A stretch of 64,000 bases of DNA, from contig CAYXEH010000006.1 in NCBI GenBank assembly GCA_964463915.1, positions 8,490 to 72,489 of the forward strand, written 5' to 3'. A program made the position numbers and the translations under genes. The notes beneath the pieces were generated by a model, which was not told where the DNA came from, made no database searches, and saw nothing but the letters and a program-made list of their open reading frames with translations. Positions within the stretch are counted from its first letter, which is position 1, and every line of letters begins with the position of its first letter. Source of the DNA: an uncultured Bacteroidales bacterium (GTDB taxonomy: Bacteria > Bacteroidota > Bacteroidia > Bacteroidales > UBA7960). Of the stretch, positions 4,961-52,594 are shown piece by piece.

Positions 4961-4963
4961 TGG

Positions 4964-5035
4964 TAGCCCGTAGGGGATTCGAACCCCTGTTACCAGGATG
5001 AAAACCTGGCGTCCTAACCCCTAGACGAACGGGCC
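4964..5035 (-). tRNA. tRNA-Glu (UUC), copy 1
   Basis: The reverse complement is GGCCCGTTCGTCTAGGGGTTAGGACGCCAGGTTTTCATCCTGGTAACAGGGGTTCGAATCCCCTACGGGCTA. It folds as a cloverleaf with anticodon loop TTTTCAT and a GGTTCGAAT T-loop. CCA is encoded at 4961..4963. Confidence 0.9.
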
Positions 5036-5098
5036 GTAAACACGTGGCGGGAATATGCATTTTTCTACAAATCCACAAAGAACCGCCACCCGGAATAT

Positions 5099-5353
5099 CT
5101 ATTGCAAATTGTTCACGTGACGCGTCAGCTTGCCTTTCAGATTGGCCGCTTTGTTCTTATGAATCACGGATTTCTTTGCCAGACGGTCAATCATAGAGAT
5201 CACACGGGGCAAGCTTTTTTCTGCCTCGGACTTACTCTCCATGCCACGAATTTTTCTAACCGCTGTGCGTGTGCTTTTGGCATAATACCTGTTCCTCAAT
5301 TTTTTTGCATTGTCGGAACGGACTCTTTTCTTCGCTGATTTATGGTTTGCCAT
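5099..5353 (-). CDS. rpsT: 30S ribosomal protein S20
   Basis: 84-aa basic protein beginning MANHKSAKKRVRSDNAKKLRNRYYAKSTRTAVRK, a typical S20 N-terminus. Confidence 0.95.
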   Translation of the reverse strand: MANHKSAKKRVRSDNAKKLRNRYYAKSTRTAVRKIRGMESKSEAEKSLPRVISMIDRLAKKSVIHKNKAANLKGKLTRHVNNLQ

Positions 5354-5393
5354 AATGCCTCGTTAAAATGATTTCTTTGTAAAATCTGGTTTG

Positions 5394-5465
5394 TAGCCCG
5401 TAGGGGATTCGAACCCCTGTTACCAGGATGAAAACCTGGCGTCCTAACCCCTAGACGAACGGGCC
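5394..5465 (-). tRNA. tRNA-Glu (UUC), copy 2
   Basis: 72 nt identical to 4964..5035. Here the 3' flank reads ACAA, so CCA is not encoded. Confidence 0.9.
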
Positions 5466-36127: not shown

Positions 36128-36320
36128 CCTTAACCCGGACATAGGCAGATGAACCAATCGCATTGATCCGGATCCCAAACACCTTAACCGGGAACCCAAC
36201 CGCATTGATCCGGATTCCAACCACATTAACCCGTATCCTACACGTTGTAACCGGGCTAACCAACCGCATTGACCCGGCCCCCATACACCATGACCGCGCA
36301 AACCGACTGCATTGACAATC
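36128..36320. repeat. degenerate 21-22-bp tandem repeat array (9 units), non-coding
   Basis: The units start at 36128, 36151, 36172, 36193, 36214, 36235, 36256, 36278 and 36299. An example is GAACCAATCGCATTGATCCGG / ATCCCAAACACCTTAACCGGG / AACCCAACCGCATTGATCCGG. The consensus is about a.cCcAAcCnCATTGAnCCGG, with a 42-bp super-period between units 2-3 and 4-5. Confidence 0.85.
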
Positions 36321-36384: not shown

Positions 36385-38037
36385 ATGAATAATGCACAAT
36401 TTTATTACACCCGACCAAATAATGAACCAGTTTTTGAATACAGAAGGGGTACCCCCGAGCGTGATGCCCTGGAGGCGGAACTGCAGCGGCAGAGTGAACT
36501 GGAACTGGAAATTCCTCTGATCATAGGGGGCAAAGAGGTGCGAACCGGTGATACCGGCAAGGTGGTAATGCCACATAACCATCAGCATGTACTTGCCACC
36601 TATCACAAAGCCGGCAAAAAAGAAGTCAAGATGGCCATTGATGCTGCCATGGAAGCCCATCGCGAGTGGGCCGGAATGTCATGGGTGGATCGTGCATCCA
36701 TTGCCCTGAAAGTGGCTGGTTTGATTGCGGAAAAATACCGGGCCCTGATGAATGCATCCACCATGCTCGGGCAGGGAAAAAATGCCTATCAGGCAGAAAT
36801 TGAGGCTGTATGCGAAACCGTTGACTTTCTGCGTTTCAATGCACATTATGTCTCTGAGATTTATGACGATCAGCCCCATTCTGAAATTGGCAACCTCAAC
36901 AGGATTGAATACCGCCCCCTTGAAGGTTTCGTATTTGCCGTAACACCTTTCAATTTTACCGCCATTGCTTCCAACCTTGGTATGGCACCGGCCATACTGG
37001 GAAATACCGTTGTCTGGAAACCAGCCACAACCGCCCTCTTATCCAATTATTACCTGATGCAAATTTACAGGGAAGCCGGAATGCCTGATGGAGTGATCAA
37101 TTTTATACCCGGGAAGGGAAGCACGATAGGAGAAGTTGCCCTCCACGATGAAAACCTTGGCGGACTACACTTTACAGGCTCGGAGCCCACCTTCAACCAC
37201 CTGTGGAAAACGGTTGGCAACAACATTGACAATTACAAAACCTATCCCAGGGTAGTGGGTGAAACCGGGGGCAAGGACTTCCTGATGATGCACAATTCCG
37301 CCAACCTGGATGAAGTAGCCACGGCCCTGGTACGTGGCGCATTTGAATACCAGGGGCAGAAATGCTCAGCTGCATCCCGGGCTTATATCCCGGCTTCCAA
37401 ATGGAAGGAGTTGGAAAAAAAGCTCAGGGACAATATCACATTGATCAGGAAGGGGGATGTACGCAATTTCTGCAATTTCGTCAATGCCGTAATTGACGAA
37501 AGAGCCTATGACAAGATCATGGGTTATATCCAAAAAGCAAAGGATTCCAACAAGGCGGAAATTATTGCCGGAGGCAACGGGGACAAGTCAAAGGGTTATT
37601 TCATCGATCCCACCGTGATCCTGACCTCAGACCCCCATTTTGTAACCATGGAGGAAGAGATATTTGGCCCGGTGCTAACCATCTTTATCTATAAAGATGA
37701 AGATTACGAAAAGACCCTGCACCTTTGCAATGAAACATCACCTTACGGGTTAACGGGAGCCATTTTTGCCAAGGACCGCACAGCCTTTGTCCGGGCTTGC
37801 CGCATCCTGAGATATGCCGCGGGTAATCTTTACTACAACGACAAGCCAACGGGCTCAGTAGTCGGGCAACAACCATTTGGCGGGGCAAGGCGTTCAGGCA
37901 CCAACGACAAAGCAGGAAGTTACATGAACCTGCTGCGCTGGATCAATCCGCGCTCAATTAAGGAAACATTCAATCCGCCCACTGACTTCAGGTATCCTTT
38001 CATGCATGAAGAACCCTGTTACCGGGAACAGGATTAA
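36385..38037 (+). CDS. pruA: L-glutamate gamma-semialdehyde (1-pyrroline-5-carboxylate) dehydrogenase
   Basis: 550-aa ALDH with ETGGKDF, catalytic QKCSAASR and the family-typical C-terminal tail. Confidence 0.9.
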   Translation: MNNAQFYYTRPNNEPVFEYRRGTPERDALEAELQRQSELELEIPLIIGGKEVRTGDTGKVVMPHNHQHVLATYHKAGKKEVKMAIDAAMEAHREWAGMSWVDRASIALKVAGLIAEKYRALMNASTMLGQGKNAYQAEIEAVCETVDFLRFNAHYVSEIYDDQPHSEIGNLNRIEYRPLEGFVFAVTPFNFTAIASNLGMAPAILGNTVVWKPATTALLSNYYLMQIYREAGMPDGVINFIPGKGSTIGEVALHDENLGGLHFTGSEPTFNHLWKTVGNNIDNYKTYPRVVGETGGKDFLMMHNSANLDEVATALVRGAFEYQGQKCSAASRAYIPASKWKELEKKLRDNITLIRKGDVRNFCNFVNAVIDERAYDKIMGYIQKAKDSNKAEIIAGGNGDKSKGYFIDPTVILTSDPHFVTMEEEIFGPVLTIFIYKDEDYEKTLHLCNETSPYGLTGAIFAKDRTAFVRACRILRYAAGNLYYNDKPTGSVVGQQPFGGARRSGTNDKAGSYMNLLRWINPRSIKETFNPPTDFRYPFMHEEPCYREQD

Positions 38038-38209: not shown

Positions 38210-38249
38210 TTAACGAGTAAGTTCCCCGCTTAACGAGTAAGTTCCCCCC
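38210..38249. repeat. 20-bp tandem duplication spanning the ansA stop codon
   Basis: TTAACGAGTAAGTTCCCC occurs at 38210..38227 and again at 38230..38247. The second copy encodes the last codons and the stop of ansA. Confidence 0.9.
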
Positions 38250-39258
38250 GCAAGGGTTTTTGCAGATAATCTCTCAGGCGGTCAGAGGTATATCCGTTGC
38301 CAAGCAAATACATCAGCTTGGTAACGGCAGCCTCGGTGGTCATGTCGTATCCGCTGACCACACCGGCATTTACCAGCCATGCACTGGTTTCGTATTTCCC
38401 CTGATCCACTGCACCTCCCCGGCACTGGCTGATATTACACACCAGCAGTCCCCGGGCAATGGCATTATTCAGATCCTCCGCAAACCAATCAAGGTGAGGC
38501 GCATTTCCGGCCCCGTAAGTTTCCATCACCACGGCTTTTAACCCTTCGGTCGATAAGATTGCAGACACCACCGCAGGGCTGATGCCGGGAAACAGCTTCA
38601 GTACAGCAATGTTGTTATCAAGATTGCTATACACACGGAATTTATCATCTGAAGCTTGCTGAATGGCTACCTCATTGTATTTGATATGAACACCGGCACG
38701 AGCCAGAACCGGATAGTTCACTGATAAAAAGGCTTCAAAGTGTTCTGCATTGTGTTTATGGGTGCGGTTTCCACGATAAAGCTGGGATTCGAAAAAGATA
38801 CAAACCTCGGGTACCACCGCTTTCCCCTCTTTTTTGGCCGCTGCAATCTCCAGGGCAGTGATAAAATTTTCTTTTCCGTCGGTACGTATCATTCCGATGG
38901 GGAGCTGAGATCCGGTGAAAACCACTGGTTTTGACAGGTTCTCCAGCATAAAGCTCAGGGCAGATGCCGTATACGACATGGTATCCGATCCATGCAAAAC
39001 CACAAAACCGTCATAGGCGTCATAATGGGCTTCGATCATTTTGGCAAGGCGAACCCAGATGGCCGGTTCCATGTTGGAAGAATCAATCACAGGATCAAAA
39101 GAGATGCTTTCTATCTGGTAGTTAAACCGGCTGATCTCAGGAATCTGATCGGTCAGATGTTCAAAATCAAACGGGTTCAATACCCCGGTAACAGGATCCT
39201 CCACCATACCAATGGTGCCGCCTGTGTAAATTACGAGTATGCGTGGTTTTGAGGTCAT
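38230..39258 (-). CDS. ansA: L-asparaginase, type I
   Basis: Begins ILVIYTGGTIGM and contains HGSDTM and the type-I length of 342 aa. Confidence 0.9.
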   Translation of the reverse strand: MTSKPRILVIYTGGTIGMVEDPVTGVLNPFDFEHLTDQIPEISRFNYQIESISFDPVIDSSNMEPAIWVRLAKMIEAHYDAYDGFVVLHGSDTMSYTASALSFMLENLSKPVVFTGSQLPIGMIRTDGKENFITALEIAAAKKEGKAVVPEVCIFFESQLYRGNRTHKHNAEHFEAFLSVNYPVLARAGVHIKYNEVAIQQASDDKFRVYSNLDNNIAVLKLFPGISPAVVSAILSTEGLKAVVMETYGAGNAPHLDWFAEDLNNAIARGLLVCNISQCRGGAVDQGKYETSAWLVNAGVVSGYDMTTEAAVTKLMYLLGNGYTSDRLRDYLQKPLRGELTR

Positions 39259-39294
39259 ATGGTTCTTGGTTTGTTCGCTGCTTCTCAGCTCACG

Positions 39295-39496
39295 GTTGAC
39301 GGGGGCCGACGCCCCCTTGGTTAGTCGGGGCTGACGCCCCTCCGGTTGGTCGAGGGCTACCGCCCTCTCCAGTTGTTAGTTAGTCGGCGTTTCGCGCCTG
39401 GTGGTTACGGGGTCTTCGACCCCTGGTTAATAACGTTTGATCCCTTCGGGATCGACCTCTGCCCGGAAGAACCATCAACCAGAGTGGCGAAGCCAC
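39295..39496. repeat. array of 7 short GC-rich hairpins, the first six preceded by GGTTAGTC-like linkers
   Basis: The hairpins are at 39301..39316 (GGGGGC-CGAC-GCCCCC) and 39327..39340 (GGGGC-TGAC-GCCCC). Next come 39352..39367 (GAGGGC-TACC-GCCCTC), 39386..39398 (GGCG-TTTCG-CGCC) and 39409..39423 (GGGGTC-TTC-GACCCC). The last two are 39439..39453 (GATCCC-TTC-GGGATC) and 39484..39496 (GTGGC-GAA-GCCAC). The linkers are GGTTGAC, TTGGTTAGTC, TCCGGTTGGTC, GTTAGTTAGTC, TGGTGGTTAC and TGGTTAATAACGTTT. Confidence 0.85.
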
Positions 39497-39498
39497 GG

Positions 39499-40266
39499 CT
39501 AGACCCCAAACATCCTGCGTGCATTGGCCGTGGTGACCCCGGCGACTTCTTCCACATCAATGCCCTTAATCTCTGCAATCCGCTCTGCGATATGAGGCAG
39601 GTAGGCACTCTCATTTCGCTTTCCCCGAAAAGGGACGGGAGAAAGGAAAGGGGCATCTGTTTCCAGAATAAGGTGTGACAGGTTCACTGCTTTAACCACA
39701 TCTGCCATCAGGCTGTTCTTATAAGTAACCACTCCGCCGATGCCCAGCATGAACCCCATGTCTATCACCTTTGCGGCCTGTGCCGCATTCCCGGGAAAGC
39801 AATGAAAAACACCCTTCAGTGCGGGATCCTGCCTTGGCATGAGCACATCAAACAATTCATTCAATGAGTTGCGTGAATGAAGTACAAGAGGCAATGAATA
39901 CTCCCTGGCCCAGTGAATATGATGCTCCAGCGACTCTTGCTGCTCATCTTTATATGTTTTGTCCCAGTAAAGGTCAATGCCGGTCTCACCAACAGCAACA
40001 AATCCTCCCTTTTTCAACCATCCTTCAATGTTGGCCAGTTCGGTATGATAGGTGGTTTTTACGGAAGTTGGGTGAAGTCCCATCATAGGCAGACATCTCC
40101 CCGGAAACTGCCGGGCGGCAGCCATCATTGACACAACGGTATGGCTGTCAATATTGGGCATGAGAAAGTGGCTGACCTGCGCCTTTTCGGCGCGGTCAAC
40201 CACCTCTGCCCTGTCATAATCAAACTGTTCCAGGTAAATATGCGTATGGGTGTCGATCAGTTCCAA
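39499..40266 (-). CDS. tatD: TatD-family metal-dependent hydrolase
   Basis: Begins MELIDTHTHIY, contains GETGIDLYW and HCF, and is 255 aa long. Confidence 0.9.
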   Translation of the reverse strand: MELIDTHTHIYLEQFDYDRAEVVDRAEKAQVSHFLMPNIDSHTVVSMMAAARQFPGRCLPMMGLHPTSVKTTYHTELANIEGWLKKGGFVAVGETGIDLYWDKTYKDEQQESLEHHIHWAREYSLPLVLHSRNSLNELFDVLMPRQDPALKGVFHCFPGNAAQAAKVIDMGFMLGIGGVVTYKNSLMADVVKAVNLSHLILETDAPFLSPVPFRGKRNESAYLPHIAERIAEIKGIDVEEVAGVTTANARRMFGV

Positions 40267-52471: not shown

Positions 52472-52482
52472 TTATTCAGTCA

Positions 52483-52594
52483 TTTTGTCGGATGCTTCGC
52501 ACCCTCCAGTTTGTCGGGGACTATCGCCCTCTCCGGTTAGTCGGGGGCTGCCCCCCGACTAACCAACAACCGAAGGCGCGCAGCCCCGACAAAA
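52483..52594. repeat. palindromic element built from the same GGTTAGTC/TTGTC-plus-hairpin units as 39295..39496
   Basis: A perfect 13-bp stem joins GGTTAGTCGGGGG (52535..52547) and CCCCCGACTAACC (52552..52564). The outer arms are TTTGTCGGGG (52510..52519) and CCCCGACAAA (52584..52593). There are hairpins at 52490..52504 (GGATGC-TTC-GCACCC) and 52516..52531. Confidence 0.85.

Follow-up and report, generated by a model that had tools for sequence, protein, structure and literature searches.

The spacer between tatD and ansA in an uncultured Bacteroidales bacterium (contig CAYXEH010000006.1 of assembly GCA_964463915.1), analysed here within a stretch of 64,000 nt that is referred to as the window, is 240 nt long and holds seven GC hairpins at 39301-39496. 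Both genes lie on the minus strand, and all seven hairpins were found where a first-pass annotation, made from the letters of the window, had placed them on the plus strand. The array is heterogeneous: on the minus strand it runs from one reversed standard unit (an inverted H unit, as defined below) through the remnant of a second module (B), two centre-type hairpins and one centre-adjacent hairpin of the GGCGC type to three standard, direct H units. The features of the locus, in plus-strand order, are as follows.

38230-39258, minus strand: ansA (asparaginase), the downstream gene
39259-39293, minus strand: non-repeat remainder of the spacer, directly 5' of the ansA ATG, CA-rich (...GCGAACAAACCAAGAACCAT-ATG) and without a promoter box
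39294-39498, minus strand: the whole repeat element, alignable module by module with the full composite in the orthologous spacer L199 (blastn, 74% over 144 nt)
39301-39316: H unit 3, nearest ansA; plus strand GGGGGC-CGAC-GCCCCC, minus strand GGGGGC-GUCG-GCCCCC with flanks CCAA...GTCAACC (flank class 2)
39327-39340: H unit 2, the canonical unit of the family; plus strand GGGGC-TGAC-GCCCC, minus strand CCGGA-GGGGC-GUCA-GCCCC-GACTAACC
39352-39367: H unit 1; plus strand GAGGGC-TACC-GCCCTC, minus strand CTGGA-GAGGGC-GGUA-GCCCTC-GACCAACC
39386-39398: centre-adjacent hairpin; plus strand GGCG-TTTCG-CGCC, minus strand GGCG-CGAAA-CGCC, then GACTAACTAACAACTGGA
39409-39423: centre hairpin; plus strand GGGGTC-TTC-GACCCC, minus strand GGGGTC-GAAG-ACCCC
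39439-39453: centre hairpin; plus strand GATCCC-TTC-GGGATC, minus strand GATCCC-GAAG-GGATC, then AAACGTTATTAACCA
39454-39469: probable remnant of an inverted B module (minus strand ...GGTTCTTCCGGGCAGAGG, compared with GGTTCTCATGGGCCAAGG in L199; a weak likeness judged by eye)
39470-39496, plus strand: H unit in the opposite orientation, AACCATCAACCAGA-GTGGC-GAA-GCCAC (hairpin 39484-39496), abutting the tatD stop
39499-40266, minus strand: tatD (TatD_DNase), the upstream gene, with its stop codon at 39499-39501

When read on the minus strand, each unit consists of a hairpin followed by a linker, for example CCGGA-GGGGC-GUCA-GCCCC-GACUAACC, in which the linkers are composed almost only of C and A, and the loops have G as their first base and, in most cases, A as their last. 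The regular period of 24-30 bp that had been proposed was not recovered, as the hairpins are spaced irregularly (26, 25, 34, 23, 30 and 45 nt). Tandem Repeats Finder treats the first three units as tandem copies with a period of 25-26 nt and 79-81% matches. About 45 distinct hairpins with perfect GC-rich stems of at least 5 bp were counted in the 64 kb, five of them within the 200 nt of the array. All seven hairpins are present in the minimum-free-energy fold of either strand, with fold z-scores of -4.76 for the minus-strand RNA (against dinucleotide shuffles), -2.26 for the plus-strand RNA and -4.08 for the minus-strand DNA.

Several conventional identities were considered for such a structure. 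A series of stable GC hairpins that begins just past the end of tatD could point to a cluster of terminators or attenuators between the two genes; however, no T/U run follows any hairpin, terminator-like sites number 0 in 38900-39900, and elsewhere arrays of the same kind are found next to start codons and in divergent spacers, making this identity very improbable, in agreement with the first-pass annotation. The array is likewise no clustered regularly interspaced short palindromic repeat (CRISPR) locus: identical repeats with unique spacers are lacking, the would-be spacers are conserved linkers of 8-18 nt, the hairpins are the variable part and the period is 23-35 nt. The units do not keep to a period divisible by 3, so that the array is non-coding, and open reading frames (ORFs) that run across arrays are read-through artefacts. 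No promoter was found in the tatD-ansA spacer of the window, and Rfam returned nothing at E <= 1 for this spacer or for eight element-dense loci that include complete composites. A potential 9-bp helix formed by 39467-39475 with the last 9 nt before the ansA ATG was also considered and set aside, since the number expected by chance is estimated at ~0.25 and no counterpart was seen by eye in the spacers of the related loci L001-L003.

A modular repeat family in soda-lake Bacteroidales

The same units recur at many other places. A census of hairpin-plus-linker units, carried out over all loci collected here, counted 132 arrays with 624 units (2-13 units per array). Of these arrays, 120 do not overlap a predicted ORF, and on several contigs successive intergenic spacers are each occupied by an array. 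The H module, read on the ansA-sense strand, spans about 25 nt and consists of YGGA, a GC stem of 5-6 bp with a GC-G(N)NA-GC apex, the return stem and GAC(T/A/C)AAC(C). GACTAAC accounts for 52% of the linkers, so that the foot on the complementary strand reads GTTAGTC in 52%, GTTTGTC in 14% and GTTGGTC in 12%. About ten discrete complementary stems are used (GGCGC, GTGGC, GGGGC, GGGGGC, GGGTGC, GGAGGC, GAGGGC, GAGTGC, GGGCC and AGCGC), and the loops are GAA (38%), GTCA (19%) and GCA (18%), then GATA, GACA, GTTA, GGA and GTA, with the G..A form covering ~91%. The unit period is mostly 24-27 nt.

H units are combined with other modules into larger composites. The B module is ~74 nt long, ends in CCCATGAGAACCAACAAC and exists as two alternating subtypes; it accompanies the hairpin arrays (at L081-L200, for example L086, L096 and L103, at L001 560-740 and at L002 2530-2780), has no Rfam match and was found in 207 distinct copies in the metagenome loci among the matches listed. 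The centre is formed by GGTTGTTGGTT, one or two GAYCCC-GAAG-GGRTC hairpins (or CACACGGGCCATGG), CGTTACTAACA and then GGCGC-GAA-GCGCC-GRAACYAACAACYGGAG. Composites are typically palindromic: the H and B modules of one arm are inverted, those of the arm across the centre are direct, and the H arrays point outward, so that one of them adjoins each of the two neighbouring genes; within an arm the H units stand head to tail, and inversion occurs only between whole arms.

Each part of the window array can be placed in this scheme. H unit 2 scores 59 bits (E = 3e-15, at 39317-39350) with the H-unit covariance model, R1, and its form, GGGGCGTCAGCCCC, is the second commonest unit of the family, while the inverted unit at 39470-39496 matches the commonest one (GTGGCGAAGCCAC, 43 copies). 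The GAGGGC stem of H unit 1 occurs 32 times, and the CCAA/GTCA flank class of H unit 3 occurs 6 times; the GTCG loop of the latter is a rare variant (1 of 624 units), and two of the three direct H units carry loops that were found once each in the 624. The hairpin at 39386-39398 (13.3 bits with R1, at 39376-39406) is a mutated GGCGC-GAA-GCGCC module in which, compared with 45 copies of this junction module, a G-to-A change opens the innermost pair. Centre hairpins of the form GACCCY-GAAG/GCA-GGGGTC are present in L199, L163, L121, L102 and L111, and the hairpin at 39439-39453 together with the motif that follows it (GATCCCGAAGGGATC ACATGTTACT.AC) recurs in L199, L163 and L121. For the putative B remnant at 39454-39469 no significant match was obtained with an nhmmer profile of the B module.

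In public metagenomes, at least 120 stretches match a two-unit pattern (CGACHAACYGGAG-N11-15-CGACHAAC). Among the matches listed, true arrays are present at 90 of the 91 loci from three sediment metagenomes (SL_8KL_010_SED, SL_3KL_010_SED and Ga0207421), the arrays of these 90 loci holding 604 units, and the 29 loci from other metagenomes all matched by chance and contain no array. The family, on these matches, is confined to the three sediment metagenomes and a few related metagenome-assembled genomes (MAGs). The two-unit pattern had 0 matches in viral contigs, and a phage origin was rejected on this ground. The earlier idea of a dispersed family that resembles REP (repetitive extragenic palindromic) sequences and BIMEs (bacterial interspersed mosaic elements), with another unit design, thus holds, with hundreds of copies in related soda-lake Bacteroidales. 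Literature searches found no report of the module sequences or of such repeats in Bacteroidales or soda-lake genomes, and a high-copy modular hairpin-repeat family which fills the intergenic spacers of uncultured soda-lake Bacteroidales has apparently not been described so far.

Within the window itself, the family is present at one further place.

52484-52594: second family locus, a small palindromic composite in a divergent spacer (model R1 and sequence)

This locus has three units toward the minus-strand gene (ATG at 52472) and one or two in the plus direction, which share a central hairpin, GGGGG-CTG-CCCCC. With R1, the minus-strand match at 52506-52541 reaches 28.6 bits and the plus-strand match at 52544-52566 reaches 12.2 bits. 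Much longer arrays occupy the orthologous spacers of L102 and L140. The first-pass annotation had listed copies at 52.5, 51.6 and 57.2 kb, of which the first was retained and the other two were not: with filters off, the H-unit model matched only the tatD-ansA locus (59, 13.3 and 8.2 bits) and 52.5 kb, and the nhmmer profile of the B module had no match anywhere in the window. By eye, the 51.6-kb sequence is CA-rich only, and the one at 57.2 kb is a single GGGTT-GTC-AACCC hairpin next to GGTTAG. The linker that had been described before the hairpins, GGTTAGTC, is no family marker by itself, with 27 matches in the window against 31 expected, and it is the combination of linker and hairpin that is specific. 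The interpretation given earlier is otherwise essentially right, although the data support a more natural reading of the units on the gene-sense strand, as a hairpin followed by a GACTAAC linker.

A different repeat lies at 36140-36310 on the plus strand, where ~8 tandem units of ~21 nt (CCAACCGCATTGATCCGGATC), each with a CA-rich head and a GATCCGGATC-type palindrome, stand directly upstream of a TATATTTG -7 box (~36336) and an aldehyde dehydrogenase gene (36385-38037); this repeat, which is distinct from the H family, is possibly an array of binding sites.

Pairing, exchange and turnover of the units

It had been proposed that pairing is kept while the stem sequence varies, and this holds across the family. 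When units were cut out by their linkers alone, with no requirement for pairing, perfect hairpins were obtained in 70-93% of copies. Among distinct sequences, 85.5% of the cells are paired in the 14-nt class (72% after shuffling, 35-46% in slid controls) and 82.7% in the 15-nt class (65% and 42-52%, respectively); in neither class did any of 500 shuffles reach the observed pairing, and each of the 6 pairs of the 15-nt class shows double-sided changes. Covariation is therefore far above the shuffled and slid controls. The different stems of the window array, however, are drawn from variants that occur throughout the family and from recombinant arms, and are not the outcome of compensatory evolution in place. 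Imperfect units mostly carry C:C or G:G mismatches, in which the 5' arm of one variant faces the 3' arm of another, indicating exchange between units and not point mutation followed by compensation. In addition, multi-unit blocks are tandemly duplicated in L096, L109, L119, L120 and L171.

Comparison of orthologous spacers gives a view of how these arrays change, and four to five related lineages carry an array of the same kind in which unit number and order differ. The first-pass annotation had named a lack of conserved hairpins in orthologous tatD-ansA spacers as a ground for refutation, and this outcome was not observed. In the genome collection, the closest AnsA loci (L001-L003, from soda-lake sediment Bacteroidales MAGs, 90-93% amino-acid identity) have an array of the same kind directly upstream of ansA, with unit number and order of their own and with extra modules between tatD and the array. 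In relatives with an AnsA identity of 78% or less the array is missing, and the spacers are short and unrelated. L199, the tatD orthologue of which has 82.8% nucleotide identity, possesses a complete composite at the same site, which runs from the tatD stop through 3 inverted H units, 2 inverted B modules, GATCCCGAAGGGATC, GACCCCGCAGGGGTC and GGCGCGAAGCGCC to at least 4 direct H units, and the inverted unit beside its tatD stop is identical to that of the window. The window, L001, L002, L003 and L199 accordingly share a common tatD-ansA site with different modules, and the window copy is, as judged from its alignment, a shortened, mutated and decaying derivative of a full composite such as that of L199.

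At L001 (~560-602), L002 (~2520-2558) and L199 (~1490-1495) the end of tatD, with its final codons and stop, overlaps the element or is provided by it, and the C-terminus of TatD consequently varies by lineage (...MFGV*, ...MFGLVVGSHGRS* and ...LFRLEG*). In other loci (L007, L008, L009, L011 and L052) different tandem repeats, of the CCTTAACCTCAAC type, CCCTCACTTCAAGAT x4 and GGTTAATGAGTTGGAA x4, are found 200-300 nt upstream of ansA, and the tatD-ansA spacer of L011 has many CGAAG mini-hairpins. In more distant soda-lake Bacteroidales, this spacer looks like a hot spot for repeats.

Taken together, we consider it probable (about 0.7) that the array is a copy, now shortened and mutated, of a modular high-copy repeat of the REP/BIME or BOX kind, which is specific to this lineage and has colonised intergenic spacers. 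The family would spread as mobile or recombinationally dispersed selfish DNA, and its arrays may gain and lose units when the direct-repeat linkers slip or recombine unequally. A purely local product of tandem duplication or slippage, with hairpins that arose by chance or by template-switch correction and with no wider family, would account for the tandem repetition of the first three units, and template switching on quasi-palindromes can make complementary arms in a single step. Nevertheless, the same modules, stems, linkers and centre are present at more than 90 unrelated loci among the matches listed, as well as at 52.5 kb, and local origin is thereby refuted as the sole explanation, its remaining probability being negligible; duplication in situ stays part of the model of a dispersed repeat.

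Gene context and the structured strand

The H end of an array lies at a median of 30-40 nt from a gene boundary, and the other end at a median of 200-300 nt from a gene. Arrays occupy unidirectional (64), divergent (20) and convergent (11) spacers, and, as divergent spacers hold arrays, promoter-side spacers are not avoided. The genes that adjoin them are functionally unrelated. For 118 arrays a downstream gene could be called, with which 78 are co-oriented and 40 opposed. Of the 78 sense arrays, 46 end 8-45 nt before the ATG, most of them between genes on the same strand, and in only 3 of these 46 does TAnnTTTG (the Bacteroidetes -7 box) precede the array; for the 32 sense arrays that are more than 45 nt from the ATG, this box lies between array and gene in 15. 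Arrays are consequently often within polycistronic or leader RNA, as in the window, and equally readily outside transcripts or antisense to them. The tatD-ansA copy is probably co-transcribed in a tatD-ansA message, where it would act at most as a series of passive stem-loops, for example as a barrier to exonucleases or a processing site, as for REP and BOX elements.

This context invites the alternative that the arrays are selected cis-acting RNA, either as a stabiliser or insulator in 5' leaders and between cistrons, or as a platform or sponge on which ...AACYGGA... sites are bound by an RNA-binding protein. The excess of the sense orientation (78 against 40), the 46 arrays that end shortly before an ATG in probable operons, the stronger fold of the gene-sense strand (z = -4.76 against -2.26 for antisense), the better definition of the hairpins on the H strand and CA-only linkers that are unable to pair with one another all agree with it. 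On the other hand, one third of the arrays are antisense to the neighbouring gene, 15 of the 32 distant arrays are upstream of a TAnnTTTG box and so probably outside the mRNA of that gene, and symmetric composites give the upstream gene a complementary RNA. Furthermore, unit number and order are not conserved at orthologues, the neighbouring genes are unrelated and no Rfam family matches, whereas the loops are GNA or GNYA and not the RNA-stable GNRA, and the mini-hairpin is reported to be far less stable as RNA than as DNA (PMC13037366). A selected cis-acting RNA is therefore doubtful, and a dedicated riboregulator of ansA in particular is argued against because of the symmetric DNA layout, the antisense copies and the unconserved unit number at orthologues. 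The sense bias and the better-defined hairpins of the H strand nevertheless leave room for selection on RNA behaviour. A CsrA/Rsm sponge acting through the GGA of the linker was set aside, since arrays stand in both orientations and upstream of promoters; to our knowledge, CsrA is not known in Bacteroidota.

The two strands of the unit are not equivalent. The local pair probability of the hairpins is 0.66 on the H strand and 0.56 on the complementary strand (p = 6.5e-5). The nucleotides that flank the stem co-vary in classes (GGA/GAC, CAA/GTT, (A/T)CA/G(G/A)A and GCGA/GAGC), position -1 being always A and position +1 always G, a pattern that fits an extension of the stem by an A.G mismatch plus one or two pairs, including a swap from G-C to C-G. 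On the complementary strand the same positions would give pyrimidine-pyrimidine mismatches, as may be expected from the chemistry of G.A pairs. The H strand is favoured as the structured strand because only there could G.A pairing between purines close the loop and lengthen the stem. The hairpin would thus seem to be needed in single-stranded form, most likely on the strand with the G..A loops and the GGA/GAC flanks.

This asymmetry also bears on the possibility that the arrays bind a protein as duplex DNA, be it a nucleoid-associated protein, gyrase or a regulator, as has been proposed for BIMEs. Short palindromes with conserved flanks at a roughly helical-repeat-scale spacing of 24-27 bp, the symmetry of the composite as DNA and the lack of a clear orientation rule relative to replication are compatible with such a role; yet duplex binding needs a conserved stem sequence, when about 10 stems are tolerated provided that they pair, and the conservation of loop and flanks is asymmetric and purine-rich on one strand. 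Duplex binding is, in our judgement, improbable.

A number of observations weigh against the dispersed-repeat interpretation or restrict what can be drawn from it. Many loci represent the same populations in several metagenomes and their counts are not independent. Judged by the GC skew around each locus, array orientation showed no clear replication-strand bias, with counts of 51 and 81 for all loci and of 21 and 33 for the strongly skewed ones (p = 0.13), and the mismatch test for the structured strand (G:T against A:C, 6 and 4) has too few events for power. The two-to-one preference for the sense orientation (78 against 40) could reflect a selected role at the RNA level. Finally, no transposase is linked to the family, and a six-frame scan for HUH plus Y..NP/Y..NQ motifs found no ORF with HUH and a Y motif in 1.43 Mb of window and loci, a sample outside which a single-copy gene could lie.

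The ORFs between paired arrays were inspected for a transposase of the IS200 type or of the REP-associated tyrosine transposase (RAYT) type, which they do not encode: at L144 (3154-4409) and L098 (752-2943), outward arrays bracket genes that include those for an RNase H with a hybrid-binding domain and for a HicAB-like pair together with a four-helix-bundle protein, and the bracketed genes are probably mere neighbours. Elsewhere in the window, an exact 20-nt direct duplication (TTAACGAGTAAGTTCCCCGC x1.9) at 38210-38247 overlaps the 3' end of ansA, and the minus strand carries a pair of tRNA-Glu(UUC) genes separated by ~430 nt (4961-5465). The cumulative GC skew drops steadily across the window (1-64000), to -1.5, the minus strand being G-rich, and because of this steady fall the window can be placed within one replichore.

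Relation to known repeats and significance

We rate the family as a new form of the REP/BIME/BOX kind of interspersed repeat that lacks the defining tags of both REP superfamilies. Like the REPs and BIMEs of Proteobacteria, which are mobilised by RAYT (TnpA-REP), it consists of short, GC-rich extragenic palindromes in high copy that are clustered in mosaic composites with conserved linker motifs and are often co-transcribed with flanking genes. A short conserved foot is a further likeness, as GTT(A/G/T)GTC recalls the GT(A/G)G that stands 1-2 nt from a short stem in subclass 2.5 (PMC6006769), the REPs of which measure 10-13 nt in foot plus stem (PMC6006769). Some genuine REPs have a GCGAAGC apex (PMC6006769 supplement), and this shared apex and the subclass 2.5-like foot are treated here as leads. 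The differences are considerable. Although the units are high-copy and extragenic like GTAG REPs, their foot resembles but is not the unpaired GT(A/G)G, a GTAG tag is absent, and they form head-to-tail series of 2-13 units, whereas REPs are mostly single or in inverted pairs and rarely head to tail (PMC3733652). CGTC REPs have a terminal CGTC (or TGTC/CCTC), an 8-9-bp stem that starts with A/T pairs, a loop of 4-5 nt and a CCA tail (PMC3733652); here, in contrast, the tag is mostly AGTC, the stem starts with G-C, the loops are of 3-4 nt and the tail is TCC(G/A). The interchangeable stems of 5-6 bp are also shorter than the 8-9 bp or more of the REP superfamilies, the units are co-oriented within an arm instead of alternating regularly as in BIMEs, and, unlike classical REPs, they do not avoid divergent, promoter-side spacers.

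Within the same phylum, the RAYTs of subclass 2.6 (Bertels group 5), found in Bacteroidetes, are reported to be flanked by atypical hairpins without GTAG (PMC6006769). Those elements share dispersed, short, GC-rich hairpins and a non-GTAG foot with the present family, e.g. GCTAG-CGCGAGCG-TCC-CGCTCGTG (PMC6006769 supplement), but have 8-bp stems and another foot sequence, and head-to-tail arrays are not part of their description; no such transposase was seen beside the arrays. A RAYT of this subclass, which is typical of Bacteroidetes, would be the candidate enzyme for mobilisation. The BOX element of Streptococcus pneumoniae, boxA-(boxB)n-boxC, is comparable in its modularity, its variable number of tandem internal modules and its structured single strands (PMC3049150). 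Its sequence, phylum and module size (45-59 against ~25 nt) are unrelated, and it has distinct end modules and no palindromic layout with two arms. BOX is without a known dedicated transposase and is often found inside transcripts. Mycobacterial interspersed repetitive units (MIRUs) are tandem repeats located between the cistrons of operons, with copy numbers that change from strain to strain; they differ from the present arrays in their length of 40-100 bp, in having no hairpin units and in their small translation-coupling ORFs, the periods here not being multiples of 3. Integron attC sites can be set apart as well, since GACTAAC and GTTAGTC are each one base off the RYYYAAC/GTTRRRY core and are in the wrong order where both occur, the units are of 25 nt as opposed to an imperfect palindrome of 57-141 nt, and no cassettes lie between them.

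The closest structural parallel is that of the mini-hairpins d(GCGNAGC)/d(GCGNNAGC), a motif that ~90% of units reproduce exactly at their apex (with GAA, GCA, GGA, GTA or GNNA loops). The mini-hairpin is a structural motif and not a genetic element, and its relevance to the arrays, as single-stranded DNA or as RNA, is a matter of interpretation; the review of the motif gives the RNA a much lower stability, with a melting temperature of 39 C for r(GCGAAAGC) (PMC13037366). In a more speculative version, to which we give a low probability, an enzyme or a replication-linked process would read the single-stranded DNA mini-hairpin (GCG(N)NAGC apex with its G.A-extended base) and copy units outward, head to tail; alternatively, the mini-hairpins might serve the host, for instance by capping processed mRNA ends in a phylum that does not rely on Shine-Dalgarno sequences.

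REP-like repeats have been well studied in Proteobacteria and are barely described in Bacteroidota. The family presented here is abundant, modular and fast-evolving, it follows the exact sequence rule of an extraordinarily stable DNA mini-hairpin and it breaks several conventions of REPs. Its arrays may be used as strain-level markers for uncultured soda-lake Bacteroidales, and they call for caution among annotators and assemblers who encounter repeat-filled operon spacers. From a biological perspective, this family could help to show how non-canonical hairpin repeats spread, and, if true, the copying of single-stranded DNA hairpins would represent a new class of mobile or self-expanding element in Bacteroidota.

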